From the IMG/VR virus record IMGVR_UViG_2721755724_000002: DNA of 26,478 nucleotides, one strand, 5' to 3'. The notes under the pieces were generated by a model. It searched no databases. It saw only the letters and a program-made list of their open reading frames with translations, and had not been told where the DNA came from. Of this stretch, positions 1-14,342 are shown piece after piece. Origin of the DNA: a virus (lineage: Duplodnaviria; Heunggongvirae; Uroviricota; Caudoviricetes). Position 1 is the stretch's first letter; the number at the start of each line of letters is the position of its first letter. A program made the translations under genes and the position numbers.

Positions 1-915
1 ATGTACTCAATAAAAAAAGTAACCATGCTCTTGGGGTGCCTCGCCCTCACCTGCTCGATCGCATTTCAGGCGAGTGCAACTGAAAAATTCAAGGTCATTA
101 CAACATTTACCATCATCGCAGATATGGCCAAAAACGTGGCTGGAGATGCTGCAGAAGTCTCATCCATAACCAAGCCCGGTGCAGAAATTCATGAGTATCA
201 GCCTACCCCTGGCGATATTAAACGTGCGCAGGGGGCACAACTGATTCTCGCCAATGGTATGAATCTGGAATTGTGGTTCCAACGCTTTTACCAGCATCTT
301 AATGGGGTTCCAGAAGTAATTGTCTCTTCGGGTGTGACGCCAGTAGGGATCACTGAAGGCCCCTATGAGGGCAAACCTAACCCCCATGCCTGGATGTCGC
401 CAGATAATGCTCTGATTTACGTCGATAATATTCGTGATGCGTTGATAAAATACGATCCGGCAAATGCACAAACCTACCAACGTAATGCCGATACTTATAA
501 AGCCAAGATTACCCAAACCCTTGCCCCCCTGCGTAAGCAGATTGCTGAACTCCCTGAGAATCAGCGATGGATGGTCACCAGTGAAGGGGCTTTTTCTTAT
601 CTCGCACGCGATTTGGGGCTAAAAGAGCTTTATCTGTGGCCGATTAATGCCGATCAACAAGGCACGCCGCAGCAGGTACGTAAGGTTGTTGATATGGTGA
701 AGAAAAATCATATCCCGGCAGTCTTTAGCGAGAGTACGATTTCCGATAAACCAGCGCGTCAGGTTGCGCGTGAAACCGGCGCGCACTACGGCGGTGTACT
801 CTATGTCGATTCCCTGAGCACAGAAAACGGCCCGGTACCTACGTATATCGACCTTCTGAAGGTTACTACCAGTACGCTGGTACAGGGAATTAAAGCCGGG
901 AAAAGGGAGAAATAA
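1..915 (+). CDS. sitA: Periplasmic Mn/Fe-binding protein of an ABC transporter (SitA/YfeA/MntC family)
   Basis: 304-aa ORF with ATG at position 1; hydrophobic N-terminal signal sequence; close resemblance to YfeA/SitA solute-binding proteins ([30 protein letters not shown]); stop overlaps the next ATG (TAATG). Confidence 0.85.
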
Positions 916-1240
916 TGATGCAATCTGCGGGCATTGTCGTTAATGATGTTACTGTCACCTGGCGTAACGGGCACACAGCACTGCGCGATGCATTCTTCAC
1001 AGTACCAAGTGGATCTATTGCCGCTCTGGTTGGGGTAAACGGTTCCGGAAAATCGACGTTGTTTAAAGCGATTATGGGATTTGTGCGTCTGACCAGCGGA
1101 AAGATATCTGTTCTGGGTATTCCCACGCGACAGGCGCTACAGAAAAACCTGGTTGCCTACGTCCCTCAGTCAGAAGAGGTTGACTGGTCATTTCCTGTAC
1201 TAGTGGAAGATGTGGTGATGATGGGCCGCTACCGGGCAAA
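915..1240 (+). pseudogene. sitB: sitB (ABC transporter ATPase), 5' fragment truncated at a recombination junction
   Basis: Walker [10 protein letters not shown] present; SitB/YfeB-like sequence runs only to about VMMGRY (codon ~106). The track ORF continues to 1310 as antisense of the neighbouring fragment; no ABC signature or Walker B follows. Confidence 0.7.
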
Positions 1241-1249
1241 ACATCCGTC

Positions 1250-1650
1250 AACAGTTCATCAATTTCTGTCGGGCCGAAGCCTGTCAGGGAGACATCAAAA
1301 TCAGCATTGATTAGGTCCGACAGCTCCATCCGCAACAGATCTTCATCCCAGCCAGCATTCATCGGTAGGCGATTATCTGCCAGGCGGTACGCCTTTTTCT
1401 GCTCATCCGTCAGGCCAGACAGAACAATGACCGGAACAGAATCCATTTTGAGCATTTCAGCCGCCATAACACGACCGTGACCCGCAATAATTTCGCCCTT
1501 TTCGTCAATCAGCACCGGATTAGTCCAGCCGAATTGCTTAATACTTTCTACCAGTTGTGCCACCTGCTCAGTACTGTGCGTCCTGGCGTTGTGCGCATAC
1601 GGTGACAATTCTTGTAATGGGCGATAGACTATCTTTAATTTCTCGCTCAT
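1250..1650 (-). pseudogene. ParB-like nuclease-domain protein, N-terminal fragment (possibly ynaK-like), 3' truncated at the sit junction
   Basis: ATG at 1650 with AAGG Shine-Dalgarno; N-terminal ~130 aa look ParB/Srx-like (LSPYAHNARTHS, IIAGHGRVMAA). Downstream part of the track ORF ([12 protein letters not shown]...) is the reverse translation of sitB. Position next to trkG matches ynaK in Rac; symbol left blank because I cannot confirm identity. Confidence 0.5.
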
Positions 1651-1787: not shown

Positions 1788-3245
1788 TTAGGAGCGCCAA
1801 AAAAAACCTGAAAACAATATAATAACAGGATAAATTTCAAGGCGACCAAGAATCATAGCTATGCACATTAAATATTTTGCAATGTCATTAAGCACTCCGA
1901 ATGACGATGCAGTAGCCCCAAAACCTAATCCCATATTATTAATACATGCAGCCACTGTTGCAAATGATGTAAGAAAATCATATCCCATACCATTTAACAC
2001 CAGTATAAAAAACACCGTGAAGAGAGTATAAAGAAAAAAGAAACTCCATACAGACCTCATTACACGATCTGTAACTATCTTCCCTCCTACATTTACACTC
2101 AACAACGCTCTGGGATGAGAAAGCTGATTTATCTCGTGTTTGCTTTGTTTGAAAAGTATAAGAAATCGAAGTGACTTAATTCCACCACAAGTTGAACCTA
2201 TACATCCCCCAAAGAAACTTGACGACAGCAAAAACACTATCGTGTGCGTGGGCCAGTTTGCATAATCCTGCGTAGCTAAACCATTATCAGTGAGCATGGA
2301 GCTGGCAAGAAAAAACGAATGAATAAAACTTCCATGCAAGTCATACATACCTATATGCCAGACCTGGAAAGAGGTAACAATGATCACCCCTAAGGCTATT
2401 AACAGAAAGAAACGAAGTTCAATATCTCTGATTAAAGGTTTTATCGTTTTCCTGCTAATAACAATATACCAAAGAGTGAAGTTGAAAGCCGATAGCAGGG
2501 AAAAAGAACCAGCCACCAGCTCAACCAAATAGTTATTAAAATATCCGATACTCTCGCTATGAGTTGAGAAACCACCAAGCGAAACTGTGGAAATCCCGTG
2601 ACAAATAGCATCAAACAAAGGCATTCCTGCAAGTCTATAACAGACAATACAAGCAATACCTAATAAAGAATAAGTTATCCACAGTGTCCGTGACGTATCG
2701 GCCAGGCGGGGAGTGAGTTTGTCATCCTTAAATGGCCCCGGCATTTCTGACTGATAAAGCTTTGCACCACCAATACCCAATAATGGCAATACAGCAACCG
2801 CCAGAACAATAACTCCTAAACCACCTATAAAATTTAACTGTGACCGATAGTACAAATATGCCCGAGGTAATGAACTAACATCATCAATTACAGTTGCTCC
2901 TGTTGTTGTTATTCCAGAAACCCCTTCAAACAGAGCATCAATGAACGTTAAATTAAGTTCTGAGTCAATCCATAAAGGGAATGCACTAATAACAGAAAAC
3001 AAAATCCAAAACATTACAATTATAATAAACCCATCACGGGTACGTAATTGAATGCCAGATTTCTTAGTTGTATACCACGCTCCGCCACCAATGCAAAAAA
3101 ACATAACGAAAGTTATAAAGAAAACGAACAGGCTTTTTTCTTTATAAAACAATGCTACAACCATTGGTGGCAACATTGAAAGACTATAGAGCCAAACCAG
3201 AAACCCACACATATGAGTAACAACTCTTACATGAGATGTATTCAT
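1788..3245 (-). CDS. trkG: TrkG/TrkH-family potassium uptake membrane protein
   Basis: Polytopic membrane protein with TrkH-type repeats; AT-rich gene, as for Rac trkG. Track ORF starts at TTG 3263; first ATG (MNTSHVRVV) at 3245 gives 485 aa. Confidence 0.85.
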   Translation of the reverse strand: MNTSHVRVVTHMCGFLVWLYSLSMLPPMVVALFYKEKSLFVFFITFVMFFCIGGGAWYTTKKSGIQLRTRDGFIIIVMFWILFSVISAFPLWIDSELNLTFIDALFEGVSGITTTGATVIDDVSSLPRAYLYYRSQLNFIGGLGVIVLAVAVLPLLGIGGAKLYQSEMPGPFKDDKLTPRLADTSRTLWITYSLLGIACIVCYRLAGMPLFDAICHGISTVSLGGFSTHSESIGYFNNYLVELVAGSFSLLSAFNFTLWYIVISRKTIKPLIRDIELRFFLLIALGVIIVTSFQVWHIGMYDLHGSFIHSFFLASSMLTDNGLATQDYANWPTHTIVFLLSSSFFGGCIGSTCGGIKSLRFLILFKQSKHEINQLSHPRALLSVNVGGKIVTDRVMRSVWSFFFLYTLFTVFFILVLNGMGYDFLTSFATVAACINNMGLGFGATASSFGVLNDIAKYLMCIAMILGRLEIYPVIILFSGFFWRS

Positions 3246-3382
3246 ATCTAAATATTCTTTCAATTATAACCACCTTGCTGCAATATTATGATTATACTGT
3301 ATAAAATTTAACTCCTCTTAGATCTTACTTCACTGTTCCTTATGAAACAATCATCAAAATGAATCATATTGTAGTTAAGATT

Positions 3383-3847
3383 TTACTTTAAACACTGTTC
3401 GGTTATGTATTGCTGAGCACCTTCAAGTTGGGCCTGCATCATTACCAGTCGTTCCCGGAGGGTGAAATAATCCCGTTCAGCGGTGTCTGCCAGTCGGGGG
3501 GAGGCTGCATTATCCACGCCGGAGGCGGTGGTGGCTTCACGCACTGACTGACAGACTGCTTTGATGTGCAACCGACGACGACCAGCGGCAACATCATCAC
3601 GCAGAGCATCATTTTCAGCTTTCGCATTAGCTAACTCCTTCGTGTATTTTTCATCCAGTGCAGCAACATCACGCTGGCGCATCTGCATGTCAGTAATTGC
3701 CGCGTTCGCCAGCTTCAGTTCTCTGGCATTTTTGTCGCGCTGGGCTTTGTAGGTAATGGCGTTATCACGGTAATGATTAACAGCCCATGACAGGCAGACG
3801 ATGATGCAGATAACCAGAGCGGAGATAATCGCGGTTACTCTGTTCAT
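3383..3847 (-). CDS. rzpR: Rz-type inner-membrane spanin (i-spanin)
   Basis: N-terminal TM helix then coiled-coil-like periplasmic region ([20 protein letters not shown]); ATG at 3847 overlaps endolysin stop (ATGA); Rz1 embedded in +1 frame. Track ORF starts at GTG 3859. Confidence 0.8.
3442..3627 (-). CDS. rzoR: Rz1-type outer-membrane lipoprotein spanin (o-spanin), embedded in Rz
   Basis: 61-aa ORF inside Rz in another frame; signal peptide with lipobox LVVVGC and proline-rich mature part ([15 protein letters not shown]), typical of Rz1. Confidence 0.7.
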
Positions 3848-4341
3848 TGCTGACCCCACAAACAGATTTCACGCTCAATCTCACGACGAGTCATGAGACC
3901 TTTCCATTGCTTACCGCCAGCATATGTCCAGCGACGTAGCTGATCACATGCGCCTTTGATATCGCCCTGGTTTATTTTGCGAAGAAGCGTCGATGTTCTG
4001 AAATTGCCAGCACCCACGTTGTAAACGAATGAGTAAAGAGCGCCGCGCGTTGTTTCCGGTATATCGACTTCGATGTACGGGTTAATTTGTCTGGCGACAG
4101 TGGCAAGGTCTTTATTCAAGAGTGCTTTGCATTCTGCTTTGGTATACGTTTTACCGAGCATGATGTCTTTTCCTGTATGCCCGTGACATACAGTCCATAC
4201 ACCAACAATATCTTTGTATGGTATGTAGCTGACACCTTCCAGACCATCGTTACCACTTGGGCCAGTGATTAACACTGATGCTATAGCAATTGCTCCGCCA
4301 CCAATAGCAGCAGCAACGGCTTTTCGTAATGATGGAGGCAT
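3844..4341 (-). CDS. Phage lysozyme (SAR endolysin, phage 21 R-like)
   Basis: 165 aa; N-terminal signal-anchor-release segment ([18 protein letters not shown]) then lysozyme catalytic region ([10 protein letters not shown]...VCHGHTG); start overlaps holin stop (TAATG). Confidence 0.85.
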
Positions 4342-4556
4342 TATTCACCTCTCGCAGCCTTGCGCTTATCTTCTTTAATCTTGAAATAAAGGTTTGTCAG
4401 GTACGTCAGCAGGCCAAAAACCAGACTACCCAGCACACCGATTGCAGCCCACTGTGACGGAGTTACTCTATCGAGCAACTGTAAAAACCAGTAGCCAGCA
4501 CTGCCTGCGGAGGTGCCATAGGCGACACCCGTTGTTAACTTATCCATGGATTTCAT
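4341..4556 (-). CDS. Class II pinholin (phage 21 S-like) with dual-start motif
   Basis: [25 protein letters not shown]...[15 protein letters not shown], two TM segments, charged C-terminus; ATG at 4556 (GAGGTGG Shine-Dalgarno) and second ATG at 4547 resemble the S21 antiholin/holin starts. Track ORF extends upstream to 4649 without support. Confidence 0.8.
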
Positions 4557-5240: not shown

Positions 5241-5315
<75 letters not shown>

Positions 5316-5318
5316 GCA

Positions 5319-5396
<78 letters not shown>

Positions 5397-8490: not shown

Positions 8491-11052
8491 TTAATATTTG
8501 AATCTTTTGTTTGGTATGATTTTCAGTTTTTTTGCTAAAGCCGTTAACTTTCTTAAGCGCCACTTAAGGGTGGACTCAGTTAATCCTTCCCCTGCAATAC
8601 CTTTAAAAATTTCATAACAAGGCTGACCAGCGTGTATTGCTTTCCAGAAATCCTCATAGCCGTCATCAAGTATTTGAGCTGTAAGTGCCTCATTAAGCTC
8701 TTCAATATTAGATACTGCTAAGTGCCCATCGACTAAAACACCAGCATTATTTAAATCAGATTTTGCTTTAAGCGCTTCTTTTCCAGTAGGCTCTTTACCG
8801 TTCAGTATCAAGCTGGTAACTTCAATCATTTTAGCGTGAGATGTTACAGGGAAGAAAAGCCCTTTATTTCCTGCCCTTAAGCCCGAAATTTTCTTAAGAT
8901 TTCCTAACTCAGCTGTTGCATCATTATGCGACACATCTGAGGCAATAATGCGACCTTCCCCATCAATTTCTATAATTTTTAGGGCAAGTAACCATGACTT
9001 TAAAATCGTAGAGTATAATCCCCATGTTTTCTCTGATGCCTCAATAAAAGGATAAGACTCAGAAAAATACGTGGGTATATCGCTCTCGAAAACTTTTTCT
9101 CCAGAAAGAATTTTTTTAAGTAAAGTCTCGACGAGTTGATTGTCTAAAATTTTTCGGCGTAGATAACCAGCAAGGGTTCCTTGAGAATATATATCCCTAA
9201 CATTGGTTGGAATTATCCATTCACCACTTTTAACTGCATCAAGCAAGTCTAAATTCCGCAATTCCTTAACGAGATTAAATGCGTAACCTTCCCTTACATT
9301 TAGATTTTCCGTTATTTTTGTAATTGTCAGCTTTCTCATTGTTATCAGTTTATGAAACTGGGATATAACAGAGCTTGGATACATTCTATAAATAACCAGC
9401 AGTCTAAATTCAGGAAGCTTTTGGTAGACAAGATATTCTTTGAAAACATCGTTATAAGTATCATAGGTAGAACCACTCAAGCGTACCAATCTGTAAGCTG
9501 TTAACTTATCGAGGACTTTTACAAGCATTGGGTCTTCGTCAAATTGGTATTGAAGCTCATTGAAATCTGCTGGTAGCTTAGCTGCAATCTTAACTAGATA
9601 ATCTTTTTCAATCTCATCCAAACCTTCAAGCTCTTCTTCAAAAAGGTCGTTCAGTTTTAAGCCCGCACTGATTAAATCCCTCTGAGAGTCACCTTTTCGA
9701 GTGAGTTTTAAAACATGAGCTATCGTTCTCTTTAAAAGCCAAGGAAAACCCTGCGCAAATTCAATAATATAGGGTAGTATTTCTTTACTGAGAATATTAG
9801 AGTTATTTTCATTTATTTTTTCTAAAAGAAGTATTGATTCTTTGTTTTCAAAATCCGGAAGAGTAAAGCTTTTCGATAGCTGATTAATTCTATTAAGAGA
9901 AACTTTACTGTTGTCATAGGTTGTTAGCTGATCATTTTTACGCGCAAACACTATGTATACACCACCACGAAGCTTTGTTATTGAGTTCGCAATGTATTCA
10001 TAGCAATCGAAAATGTCAGGATTCGAGAATGTAGATTCAAATTGGTCAACAAAGAAAACTGCCTTTTGGCCATTTAGTGAAAGTTGCAAGTCTTTCAGTT
10101 GTTCATCAAGTTCTATAAAATTAGTCGCAATAATGCTGCTTTGGGTAAACCTCTGAACAAGATAAAAAACATCATATATTGTTTTTACATCCCTTGAGTC
10201 ATGTAATTCAGTAATAACCCCATCCATTGAGAGCTTGTTTTCTAAAAAGGATACAAGAGAGCTTTTTCCTACTCCAGAGCGACTTTTTATCTGAAGAACA
10301 TGTGGTAGCTCATTATGTTTGATGTGAGAAAGAAGTTCACCTATGAATTCAGTCCTGCCAACGAACACAGTTGGCCCTGCAGGTAGCCTATAGTCAGCCC
10401 ATTCAGTCCCAACAGTTAATCCTCGAACTATTTCACGCTTTACTTGAGGCATTTCGTCAACTATTTTTTTCTTGCTAGGCATAATGAAATCCAAACCAGC
10501 AAGTTCTGAAATCCCTATTTTTAAATTTTCCAAAAATCTTTCATCATCAATTTGGCTGCCACTTTTATTGAATACCACAAAATTTGATGGCGTTCCTGAA
10601 TTTACCTCTTTTAAAATAAATAACTTATACAACCCCGTATCAGTCTTGAGAATGTTTGGGGCCACAAGGTCATAACCTTTAATTTCCTTATGTAGAGATG
10701 TTTCAGTCGGCAAATGCAAAGTCGCAGTTATTTGGTTATAAAGTTCCTTTCCTACCTTTGTCGTTAACCCCATATTTTCGACAGTTCGAAAATAATCTTC
10801 CGCCTCCGGTGTTAATGGTGATAATGACAGAAATAATCCATGCACCTTTTTTTCCAGAAGACCTAGCGGCAAAAGCTTTCCAACGAACGCAGCAACTGTT
10901 TGTCCACTCATGCTTTTGCTGTGTGCTTTAGCTTCGCCAATAATCTTTTGGCCAGTTGCTCTAGAGAATCCTTCAATGTCGTACTCTAAACTAGATTCTT
11001 TTTTCCTTAACTCAATGTCGTATCCAGAGCCTTCCAAGTATTCTTTTAACAA
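8491..11052 (-). CDS. Mrr-like nuclease + STAND-type P-loop NTPase protein; candidate antiphage defence effector
   Basis: 853-codon ORF, strongly AT-rich. N-terminus has a PD-(D/E)xK/Mrr-like pattern (EYDIEGF...IIGEAKAH); P-loop KSRSGVGKSSL at residues ~255-265; Walker B-like AVFFVDQFE near 336; GFPWLL (GxP-like); ~350-aa helical C-terminus. Start is TTG at 11052 without a good Shine-Dalgarno, so the 5' end is uncertain. Confidence 0.75.
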   Translation of the reverse strand: MLKEYLEGSGYDIELRKKESSLEYDIEGFSRATGQKIIGEAKAHSKSMSGQTVAAFVGKLLPLGLLEKKVHGLFLSLSPLTPEAEDYFRTVENMGLTTKVGKELYNQITATLHLPTETSLHKEIKGYDLVAPNILKTDTGLYKLFILKEVNSGTPSNFVVFNKSGSQIDDERFLENLKIGISELAGLDFIMPSKKKIVDEMPQVKREIVRGLTVGTEWADYRLPAGPTVFVGRTEFIGELLSHIKHNELPHVLQIKSRSGVGKSSLVSFLENKLSMDGVITELHDSRDVKTIYDVFYLVQRFTQSSIIATNFIELDEQLKDLQLSLNGQKAVFFVDQFESTFSNPDIFDCYEYIANSITKLRGGVYIVFARKNDQLTTYDNSKVSLNRINQLSKSFTLPDFENKESILLLEKINENNSNILSKEILPYIIEFAQGFPWLLKRTIAHVLKLTRKGDSQRDLISAGLKLNDLFEEELEGLDEIEKDYLVKIAAKLPADFNELQYQFDEDPMLVKVLDKLTAYRLVRLSGSTYDTYNDVFKEYLVYQKLPEFRLLVIYRMYPSSVISQFHKLITMRKLTITKITENLNVREGYAFNLVKELRNLDLLDAVKSGEWIIPTNVRDIYSQGTLAGYLRRKILDNQLVETLLKKILSGEKVFESDIPTYFSESYPFIEASEKTWGLYSTILKSWLLALKIIEIDGEGRIIASDVSHNDATAELGNLKKISGLRAGNKGLFFPVTSHAKMIEVTSLILNGKEPTGKEALKAKSDLNNAGVLVDGHLAVSNIEELNEALTAQILDDGYEDFWKAIHAGQPCYEIFKGIAGEGLTESTLKWRLRKLTALAKKLKIIPNKRFKY

Positions 11053-11399
11053 CTCTTCAAAAAGTAACCCCTTGTAATAACTAGTGTTTTTTTTCAGTTT
11101 GTTCAGAGTGAAAAAATAAAAACATTAAACAACTCCATGTAACTATTATTGATGAGTTATAACGCTCATTAAATTGGTCAAACCGCACTTAAAACGTGGC
11201 TTCCCCATACTAGAAAATCTACTATAAAGAGGATTACATTGCACCTTTAAATTTTAGAGATTTATAAGTGAGACTAATAATCTCGCACTGTATAATCGCA
11301 GGGTAACACATCTTTCAAGCGCCTAGGTGCTCAGATATAAGCCAGATATTAATATAGTGCTCACTATTCCTCGAAAGACCTAGAATGACCGCTTCCGGC

Positions 11400-12680
11400 T
11401 GTGAGTTCAATCAGTGGATGCAACGCTATCCTTAATCAAGGGGGACGTTGCCATGAAACGAAGAACTCGGATTAACTACACGCCAGAGCAGAAGGCAATT
11501 ATCTGGGACAGATATAAGCAAGGTGATTCTCTCCATGATATCGCCAGAATGTTCGACAGATATCATTCTTCCATTATGCCCACTATCCACCAGACAGGGA
11601 GCTACCGTCCTCCCGTGCGAAAACGGTACCGATTAGCGCTTTCGCTTGATAAAAGAGAGGAGATATCCAGAGGAGTGGTAGCAAAACTCAGTATCAGGGA
11701 CATCGCCGCCAAATTATCAAAAGCGCCTTCAACGATTAGCCGCGAGGTCAGGAGGCACGGAGGTGCCAAACAATACCGTGCAGCAAAAGCCGATACTGCT
11801 GCATGGGAAAATGCTCTGAGACCAAAACCTTGCAAGCTAATTGAAAGCCCACATTGTGTAAAATCATTGCAGAGAAGATGCATCAGGACTAGTCGCCGGA
11901 ACAGATCGCCGGCTGGCTGAAACGCTGTTATCCGGATAATCAGGAAATGCATGTGTCACACGAAACGATTTATAAAACGCTTTTTATACAAACCCGGGGT
12001 GCATTAAAAAAAGAACTGCAGCAATGCCTCAGAAGCGGAAGAGCGGTTCGTAGATCCAGAACATCATCGCTTAAAGGGAAAGGGTTAGGGTCAATCCCAG
12101 ATACGATACCAATAAGCGAAAGGCCACCTGAAGTTGCAGACAGAGCCATACCGTGTCACTGGGAAGGTGACCTGATCCAGTGCTCGAAAAACTCCTTTAT
12201 CGTCACCCTCGTAGAACGCCATTCCCGCTTTGTTATGCTGGCAAAAATCAGAGACAACAAGACCATAACGGTTATATCTGCACTCATCAGACAAGCCCGG
12301 GAATTACCTGTTGAGCTTTATAAAACACTAACATGGGACCGGGGCGCTGAAATGACCAGCCATACCCGGTTTACTGTAGCGACAGATATTCAGATTTATT
12401 TCTGTGATCATCAATCTCCATGGCAACGCGGCTCAAATGAAAATACAAACAGATTACTCAGACAGTATTTTCCAAAAGGAACTGACTTATCAGTTCACAC
12501 AGTGTTGCCAGACAGCTCAACGAGCGGCCAAGAAAAACGCTAGACTACGAATCACCCGCAGAACGGTTCAATAAGTGTCTTGCGTCCATCAGTTTAACTC
12601 ACAGCGAAAAGCAGAAGTTCAAAATTTTTCATAACGACTGATGAGAACAACTCCAATTATCAAGTTTACTGGTACCTCTG
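11400..12680 (+). mobile_element. IS30-family insertion sequence, degenerate
   Basis: Left end TGTGAGTTCAATCAGTGGATGCAACGC at ~11400 resembles the IS30 left inverted repeat; internal transposase is IS30-like. Right end placed by element length; I could not find a clean right inverted repeat. Confidence 0.65.
11453..12641 (+). pseudogene. IS30-family transposase, inactivated by two frameshifts and a nonsense codon
   Basis: IS30-like segments lie in three frames: RPKPCKL (from ATG 11453); then KPTLCKIIAEKMHQD-stop-SPEQIAGWLKR, where TAG at 11890-11892 replaces the conserved Trp codon and a frame change falls near 11845; HWEGDL...WDRG...SPWQRGSNENTN in the 11947 frame; C-terminal QLNERPRKTL...FHND after a second frame change near 12505. 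Confidence 0.75.
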
Positions 12681-12737: not shown

Positions 12738-14342
12738 CTAATTAGGCCTTGCTTGAATCGCAGACTCTATAGCTTCTCGGAATTCCGGAGCATCACTTCT
12801 TAATCGATAATCATCAAGTGTATTGAATATTTCTAGAAGTTCTTTACGATAATACGGCGATGCCAAATTACCTTCGCCTCTAGTTGTGAAAATTAATAAT
12901 GAGTCAGCGACGTCTTTTAATTTTTTATTCCTTTTCAATCTAATGTAACAAGACACAATTATACCAAGAATATCTTTCCTAGATTTCAAAGTGAGTTTTG
13001 AATTAGGCAAAACCAACTCCAACATAGCACCAAGTAATTTGGTAGCCTCTTTTGAAATATAATGAAGATCGAAATTTTCTGTTTCTTTATTTTCTTGAAG
13101 GATGTCCCTTTCATCTATCCATTCGCATTGTTCTGCCCAATTTATAGCGATGCTAAATAAATGACAGAGAAGGAAGTGAAAAGGTGTTTCCCATTCACCA
13201 CTATATTCATTCGACTGCCTATTCATATTCTTTATGATTTTCTTTGCAAAATGTGTATAGTAATGCAGCCATAAATGATCCTGAAGCCCCTGATGAATAC
13301 CTTCATGAACCATGATTTCAAACAGCGTGATCCCAGAGTAAATAGGACATTTATACTTCGAAACATCTGAATAAGAACCTAAAGATTTATTAAGTGTAGC
13401 AATAATTTTTTCATCTTCATCTAACCTCCAGTAGATATATTCACCGATGTCACGGTATATTGCTAAATCAGCCGCAAACTTAGCATTGGAAAAGAAAAAA
13501 TGTAATATACGATTGTTTTTCGGGATCAACAAACGATGCCCTCGACTAACGTTAAGATTATTTTTAAGCTCAACATATAGACGACTGTTAGGTGAATCTA
13601 GTAATGCACTGATAAAATTAGAAGTAAAGTCAGAACGAACTATTGGTTCGATCTTGATTAACTCAAGGCAGAGGGATGGGTGCGCAAGTGCAAAGTGATT
13701 GGTAAGTTCAGGTGATGAGACAATATTTAATAATGCTTCATGTGCATATTCGGCAGCAGTCTCGCGATTAGAGATGCGGAGATTGTTAGCTATCTTATCA
13801 CAAAGTCGATTCTTCACCGGACTATCAATTATTGATATCAACTTTTCTAGTTGAGGTGCCAACAATTGTGCCAGATCATCGTATCGTTTAGTAAGGTGCA
13901 AATTTTCCACTAACTCTAGAAATATTCCTGTTCTTCCAACTGAAAGTTTAGGTTTTTTTAAGCGAAATAAAATGTAAATAGCAACTGCGAGTGATATCAG
14001 GTATACGGCACTTGAACTATCTAATCCCCATTTCCAGGGGCCAAAACTAAAATATAAGTCTAGTGATTTTAAAGCTGGTGCAAACACCAAATAATTGCTT
14101 AGTAAGAATGCGAAACCAACAATTGCCCAATCCCACCACGCCAGGCAGAACCTCAAACGTAGTCGAGCGTTTGGAGTAATAAGGGCCCATACGGCAGCAA
14201 TAACGCCCAGTATGGTAAGTAGACTTGAAGTATCAATTTTGGTTGGCGGTGTCATAATTTCTCTTGTAATCATGGTTTGATGTACATCGGAATGGCTTAA
14301 CATGATAAGGCTCTTTGTATTATAAATCAGAACATTATGCAC
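12738..14342 (-). CDS. Membrane-anchored protein of unknown function with HEXXH motif; candidate defence-associated gene
   Basis: 534-codon ORF, strongly AT-rich; three predicted TM helices in the first ~125 aa, then ~400-aa helical soluble region with HEGIH (residues 346-350, plus 13293-13307). Track start is GTG 14342; alternative ATG at 14303. Confidence 0.65.
   Translation of the reverse strand: MHNVLIYNTKSLIMLSHSDVHQTMITREIMTPPTKIDTSSLLTILGVIAAVWALITPNARLRLRFCLAWWDWAIVGFAFLLSNYLVFAPALKSLDLYFSFGPWKWGLDSSSAVYLISLAVAIYILFRLKKPKLSVGRTGIFLELVENLHLTKRYDDLAQLLAPQLEKLISIIDSPVKNRLCDKIANNLRISNRETAAEYAHEALLNIVSSPELTNHFALAHPSLCLELIKIEPIVRSDFTSNFISALLDSPNSRLYVELKNNLNVSRGHRLLIPKNNRILHFFFSNAKFAADLAIYRDIGEYIYWRLDEDEKIIATLNKSLGSYSDVSKYKCPIYSGITLFEIMVHEGIHQGLQDHLWLHYYTHFAKKIIKNMNRQSNEYSGEWETPFHFLLCHLFSIAINWAEQCEWIDERDILQENKETENFDLHYISKEATKLLGAMLELVLPNSKLTLKSRKDILGIIVSCYIRLKRNKKLKDVADSLLIFTTRGEGNLASPYYRKELLEIFNTLDDYRLRSDAPEFREAIESAIQARPN

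Follow-up and report, generated by a model that had tools for sequence, protein, structure and literature searches.

A stretch of 26,478 nucleotides of viral DNA (IMG/VR record IMGVR_UViG_2721755724_000002), hereafter the window, raises the question of how a truncated sitB came to abut a truncated ParB-like phage gene on the opposite strand. The original prediction placed an abrupt junction between positions 1200 and 1300, and proposed that a recombination or deletion had joined the trkG-proximal end of a prophage to an island carrying the sit operon, removing sitCD and the phage late genes along the way. Alignment with an undeleted relative of the prophage maps the breakpoint to a TA dinucleotide within that interval, and neither sitB nor the ParB-like gene is full-length here (Table 1). 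The junction is very probably the scar of an internal deletion within one sit-carrying, Rac-like lambdoid prophage, with its ends at recurrent TA sites. As such, it is an ordinary scar of prophage decay and a new allele; the recurrence of the TA breakpoints is the noteworthy part.

Table 1. Features of the window and of an intact relative, with the evidence or remark for each.
Feature	Position	Strand	Basis or remark
sitA, intact, 304 aa, periplasmic Mn/Fe-binding protein	1-915	+	complete ORF
sitB 5′ remnant, 105 of 275 native codons plus hybrid Tyr106 codon	915-1231	+	identical to intact sitB as far as 1231
sitB′ ORF tail out of context, 25 aa plus stop	1232-1310	+	antisense of ParB gene; SitB homology ends at 1231
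ParB′ ORF tail out of context, 52 aa	1072-1229	-	antisense of sitB; ParB homology ends at 1230
Deletion junction, TA dinucleotide common to both parents	1230-1231		alignment with w264
ParB/Srx-family (ynaK-like) 5′ remnant, codons 1-140 of 262	1230-1650	-	translation equals w264 ParB through ...LLTDVLPG
trkG, K+ transporter, intact, prophage cargo	1788-3263	-	ORF; annotated trkG in all matching genomes
Lysis cassette: Rz-like lysis protein, lysozyme RrrD, holin EssD	3383-4556	-	ORFs; annotation of w264 (99.9% identical)
tRNA-Gly(tcc)	5243-5317	-	prophage-borne
tRNA-Thr(tgt)	5321-5396	-	prophage-borne
853-aa protein, weak N-terminal Mrr_cat nuclease match plus nSTAND1 NTPase domain	8491-11052	-	
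IS30-family element, terminal inverted repeats TGTGAG...CTCACA, GC target duplication	11399-12606	+	
TAGT-like gene	L011 45064-45996	-	lost in window
ParB/Srx gene, intact relative	L011 45989-46777	-	truncated in window

On the sit side, sitA is intact as predicted: its product matches the Pfam ZnuA profile at 2.4e-86 over positions 1-262 of 263, and window positions 1-966 are 100% identical to genomes whose SitA product is WP_000286867.1. The sitB frame, which starts at 915, stops matching after the residues VMMGRY, where the original prediction had seen the similarity fade; homology to intact sitB is exact up to 1231 and then absent. Here, the Tyr106 codon is a hybrid, changed from TAT to TAC by the join, and the complete open reading frame (915-1310) encodes a fused product of 131 aa. 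This product retains the Walker A motif, while the second half of the ABC_tran domain is gone, with Pfam profile coverage of positions 2-71 of 137 as compared with 1-136 for intact SitB. Neither sitC nor sitD is present in the window, and in the undeleted relative E. coli w264 (NZ_CP095088.1), used as the reference (ref) below, both lie within the missing 29.8 kb.

On the other side, the minus strand does encode the end of a truncated ParB-like gene, as had been proposed. Native sequence runs from 1650 down to 1230 and stops at residue 140, so that the remnant is without its C-terminal 122 residues, while the ParB_N domain is complete (residues 23-90, 29.8 bits against a Pfam cut-off of 26.3). 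The ParB/Srx protein is full length (262 aa) in FORC_081 and in w264, and the window gene is orthologous to K-12 ynaK. Its placement at the trkG-proximal end of the prophage needs refinement: trkG is its neighbor, with a RefSeq start at approximately window position 3245 and a location immediately inside the right edge of the deletion, but in intact prophages the ParB-like gene lies mid-prophage, between terS and trkG. In w264, RefSeq lists this gene as a 258-nt ynaK pseudogene without a C-terminus (L010 7095-7352; L011 46520-46777), whereas its reading frame is open for all 262 codons, and the pseudogene call is an artefact of annotating against K-12 YnaK. The adjoining gene in intact prophages encodes 310 aa with a match to Pfam TAGT (TET-associated glycosyltransferase; 3.4e-36), and this gene and ParB/Srx, which lie just upstream of terS, may work as a pair in DNA modification. 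Many of the right-hand deletion ends in this prophage family lie inside these two genes.

The join itself can be placed to the nucleotide. The left parent matches the window to position 1231 (ref 16554) and the right parent matches from position 1230 (ref 46357), and the window-versus-w264 alignment contains a single gap of 29,804 bp. The two flanks match their parental loci at 99.6-100% identity, over >1.2 kb and >2 kb, so the junction is not a chance pattern. Both genes had been described as incomplete and overlapping in antisense, and the two open reading frames (915-1310 and 1072-1650) do overlap by 239 nt, between their ends at 1072 and 1310, each running into the antisense of the other gene. 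The sitB′ and ParB′ frames are probably pseudogene remnants that read into one another's complementary strand. No insertion sequence (IS), filler or other inserted DNA is present at the join, where sitB runs straight into ParB sequence. The parents share exact identity only at TA, flanked by the imperfect match TA-T-GGGCA in sitB and TA-CC-GGGCA in ParB, as compared with the tens of bp of shared identity expected of homologous (RecA-type) recombination. Because exact identity is limited to TA and the join carries no IS or filler, the deletion is illegitimate and homology-independent.

A join that shares only 2 bp and is found in none of 5,426 complete E. coli genomes could have come from an assembler that fused two unrelated contigs, but this is extremely improbable. 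An independent metagenome assembly contains the identical junction, with one SNP in 1,341 nt relative to the window, and encodes exactly the same 131-aa SitB′. Moreover, both flanks derive from one prophage in their correct relative order and orientation, sister junctions at the same nucleotides occur in complete long-read genomes, and overlaps of 2 bp are not used by assemblers for joining contigs. Since the junction is absent from all of these complete genomes, its support from other sequences consists of this one short metagenome contig; together with the fit of flank order and orientation to a simple deletion, and with the sister junctions, that contig makes a misassembly at 1230/1231 unlikely.

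What was lost becomes clear from the undeleted relatives. Window positions 3300-26478 are 99.9% identical over their whole length to five complete E. coli genomes, including w264, that keep the full late region. From the attR side, the order in w264 is uspF, attR, sitABCD, tail fibres, lom, J, tail genes, tape measure, ydaY, tail tube, head genes, portal, terL and terS, followed by a 69-aa ORF, the 310-aa TAGT-like gene, ParB (262 aa), trkG, the lysis genes and, further on, recET, xisR, intR and ttcA. The strains w264, KFu024, STS73-1-E and 127 share with the window the flank order of sitA-sitB and ParB-trkG; in contrast to the window, they keep sitBCD, the entire morphogenesis region and the 262-aa ParB. 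Relative to w264, the window lacks the remainder of sitB together with sitCD, every tail, head and packaging gene, the TAGT-like gene and the ParB C-terminus, and all virion morphogenesis and packaging genes lie inside the deleted interval (ref 16555-46356). Thus the proposed removal of both sitCD and the late genes agrees with the single gap, and in this respect the deletion half of the original prediction stands. The separate sit island does not. The K-12 attR remnant ttcC maps approximately 360 bp outside sitA, next to uspF, and because of this position sitABCD is cargo inside the same Rac-like prophage, so that the event is an internal deletion.

The prophage has the features of a Rac-like element, with an intR-xisR-recET-kilR early region, trkG, lysis genes in Rac order and a location near ttcA/uspF. 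K-12 Rac has in common with it the ttcA/ttcC site by uspF, trkG and the ParB-like gene, and is also defective, with most of its late genes lost through internal deletions. K-12 Rac differs in that its ynaK breaks off at codon 87 and continues into ydaY through a TT microhomology, leaving a 12.9-kb gap relative to w264, and in that its attR end carries stfR-tfaR-pinR and no sit operon. Based on their similarity to the window, undeleted prophages of the w264 type are the likely ancestral form. The ancestor would have been a w264-like, Rac-like lambdoid prophage at ttcA with sitABCD as cargo beside attR, from which about 29.8 kb between sitB nt 317 and ParB codon 141 would have been lost. The terS gene of w264 carries an IS3-family insertion that accounts for approximately 1.3 kb of the 29,804 bp; without this insertion in the ancestor, the loss would come to about 28.5 kb. 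The ends would then have been joined at a TA common to both parents, with neither homologous recombination nor an IS involved. A phage-related, unstable island with sitABCD and many deletions and rearrangements has been described as 'PAI sit' in Shigella flexneri and E. coli, and, as far as the summary of Fisher et al. (2009) in PMC7545054 goes, its instability is ascribed to homologous recombination and insertion sequences. The window junction differs from that description, with 2 bp of identity and no IS.

The window is one member of a series. Sister alleles in FORC_081, PSS-07, the O177:H21 group, E300010, ES5 and A65EC also carry truncated sit genes fused to prophage DNA near trkG, with breakpoints at TA and some at the very nucleotides used in the window, but the partner breakpoint varies, so each allele retains a different remnant. 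Across strains, the sitB breakpoint (ref 16554) has four different right-hand partners (portal ref 40805, terS ref 44242, ParB ref 46357, and ref 46742), always at a TA in both parents; L072 has the portal join, FORC_081 and L073 have the terS join, and PSS-07 has a join at approximately ParB codon 12. The ParB breakpoint (ref 46357, TA followed by CCGGGCAAAAC) is in turn preceded by at least 13 different non-native sequences, which include sitA nt 621, the end of ydaY, a tail gene, the terminase large-subunit gene, a point upstream in ParB and a tail-fibre assembly gene. Wherever the left parent of a ParB-site join is known, it also has TA at the break, and at least 11 complete genomes make up the group with the sitA nt 621 junction. 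The sites at sitA 621 and sitB 966 have two or three partners each, and additional scans for partners of these two breakpoints added none. Overall, the reused hot sites lie at ref 15944, 16289, 16554, 45911, 45996 and 46357 (window 621, 966, 1231 and 1230).

Four partners on one sitB breakpoint would also be explained by a nested series descending from a single founding junction. In such a two-step history, an older deletion from sitB nt 317 to the portal gene or terS, as still present in L072 and FORC_081, would have been followed by a deletion from that junction to ParB codon 141, and the half-site CCGC-TA does remain at the junction after every step. We consider this route possible, if somewhat doubtful. 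Every later step would have to begin at exactly the same TA, however, so a hot spot is needed either way, and the 1-2 SNPs that separate these strains in the sitA-sitB′ flanks are too few to order the steps.

Other rearrangements are also found in this prophage family. Some relatives, all of them IMG/VR and metagenome contigs, have three to six internal deletions each, in which TA-type joins and ordinary microhomology joins are mixed (L109, L132, L159, L129, L116, L104, L036). Classical IS-adjacent deletions extend from an IS1 end in ompN (fixed end ref 13192/13193) and stop at differing positions inside the prophage, with the loss of uspF and sit (L158, L168, L169, L127), while L175 carries an IS-adjacent deletion from the IS3-family element in terS (ref 42827).

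To quantify the TA preference, approximately 195 loci from complete genomes, metagenomes and IMG/VR (L001-L198) were mapped against w264, giving 42 clean, distinct deletion junctions. TA is part of the microhomology at 23 of the 42, as compared with 0.9% for random breakpoints (p ~5e-36), an approximately 60-fold excess, and two-nucleotide microhomologies are exactly TA in 15/19 cases against an expected 3.6% (p ~9e-19). The flanks are also non-random. Against the full set of 2,764 TA sites in the region, the 34 distinct parental TA sites are enriched for C at position -4 from TA (34/68 versus a background of 23%, p 1.5e-6) and for G at position -2 (41/68 versus 28%, p 2.6e-8), while position -3 holds C or G. 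This enrichment is found on both sides, in retained and deleted halves alike, and therefore describes a palindromic context, CSGN-TA-NCSG. In the window, the join CCGC-TA-CCGG unites two consensus half-sites, and all four half-sites of the event have C at both -4 and -3.

These figures bear directly on whether any TA-directed activity is needed. Replication slippage or alternative end joining could have produced the window deletion through TA-T-GGGCA and TA-CC-GGGCA, in which both parents offer a TA followed one or two bases later by GGGCA; because ordinary joins with 0-5 nt of microhomology make up about 19 of this family's 42 junctions, the window event could be of this generic kind and fall at TA by coincidence. 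We regard this as unlikely, since the same sites join partners that share only TA (sitA 621 with ParB, sitB with portal), TA is heavily over-represented at the junctions, and the C(-4)/G(-2) preference is positional and not a matter of identity between partners. Given that both window breakpoints belong to recurrent TA sites in a CSGN-TA-NCSG context, an activity that cuts and rejoins DNA sequence-selectively is a more likely cause than random slippage. We advance tentatively, as somewhat less likely than not, the reading that the junction is the product of an undescribed, sequence-selective TA deletion process, neither IS-driven nor random microhomology, that erodes this prophage family at TA in the CSGN-TA-NCSG context, with a few very hot sites used repeatedly, through a dimeric or two-strand-acting host or phage enzyme. 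Such an enzyme could, for instance, be a type IA topoisomerase, or else a recombinase or nuclease that has so far escaped recognition. We infer both this enzymology and the order of events, be it one step or two via an older sitB-terS or sitB-portal junction. A search of the literature for TA-specific deletions in prophages found nothing relevant.

A mobile element that targets TA would offer a more familiar source for the same pattern. Fixed endpoints with variable partners are the classic mark of IS-adjacent deletion, true IS1- and IS3-adjacent deletions are present in this prophage family, and precise excision of an element from a TA duplication would leave a single TA. Here, adjacent deletions, or recombination between two copies, would have been followed by precise loss of the element. 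This history is very unlikely, however, as none of the approximately 195 loci has a resident element at any TA junction. IS5 and IS630 target YTAR and CTAG, respectively, and the tetranucleotides at the junction sites do not fit either preference. The IS30-family copy in the window is a pseudogene with a GC target duplication, and the lambda IS30 hot spot is unrelated in sequence, so IS30 was set aside as the agent. The context (GC)GNTANC(GC) is reported to disfavour insertion of the Himar1 mariner element, and the motif flanking the junctions is this same Himar1-disfavouring context, which argues against a mariner-type element. The flanking motif also suggests an unusual local DNA structure.

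Several enzymes were also compared with the signature attributed to this putative TA-directed process. Illegitimate recombination by DNA gyrase was rejected, as the published consensus centre, CGGCGGTAT^NNNN^ATACCGCCG with a 4-bp stagger, does not match and, unlike the junction sites, is not symmetric about a single TA. Rpn nucleases, which a published report describes as lacking sequence specificity, were likewise discarded. Pseudo-sites for a Pin/Hin/Gin invertase or a resolvase do not account for the junctions either: the half-sites are dissimilar to the consensus sequences of these recombinases, and prophages of the w264 type are without a pin gene. Inversions at TA sites were considered as well, and the sole inversion seen (L111) has non-TA junctions. 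A partial resemblance is to E. coli topoisomerase I, whose in-vivo motif is a C located four nucleotides before a T^A cut, within AT-rich TCNTTA sequence (PMC9352719). The TA and a C approximately four positions upstream, the two strongest features shared with the junction sites, resemble this motif. In contrast, the junction C lies one position further away (-5 if the cut is T^A), the junction context is GC-rich, and G(-2) is the strongest feature of the junction sites. When half-sites with C(-4) are paired on the same strand, 14/23 pairings are found as compared with 11 and 13 in control pairings, which does not discriminate between the models. The partial resemblance makes topoisomerase I a lead and nothing further.

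The consequences for both parts of the locus follow from gene content. The operon had been expected to be non-functional here, and the gene complement agrees, with an ATPase that lacks its second half and no permease genes in the window. Because the locus offers SitA and half an ATPase with zero permease genes, the Sit importer would be unable to assemble from it. The chromosomal sit locus would thus be dead, yet sitA would score as present in gene-presence or PCR typing. A second sit copy may reside elsewhere in the genome, beyond the 26-kb window, and is conceivable given how often sit is carried on plasmids (1,019 plasmid matches). Since every virion gene has been lost, the prophage should likewise be unable to form virions and would be a remnant fixed in place, one that keeps int/xis, recET, the lysis genes, trkG and a probable defence islet. 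More broadly, the locus is a natural collection of deletion alleles that arose independently and whose recurrent TA breakpoints are exact to the nucleotide. Should the TA/C(-4)/G(-2) signature reflect a specific enzyme, it would define a concrete molecular route for the domestication of E. coli prophages and the formation of pseudogenes, and one that is directly testable in a w264-type lysogen.

The remainder of the window adds several minor observations. Two tRNA genes, for tRNA-Gly(tcc) and tRNA-Thr(tgt), sit between the lysis genes and a cluster of DUF1133, DUF1364 and DUF1367 genes. The 853-aa protein is named in RefSeq as either a 'restriction endonuclease' or an 'nSTAND1 domain-containing NTPase'; it has no PADLOC hit, and its gene, which lies in the early region of the prophage, resembles antiphage defence genes of the STAND type. 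The IS30-family element lies between this STAND gene and a 534-aa ORF (12738-14342, minus strand) for which neither Pfam nor PADLOC gives a hit. The transposase of the IS30-family element is broken into two ORFs, and RefSeq records it as frameshifted with an internal stop.
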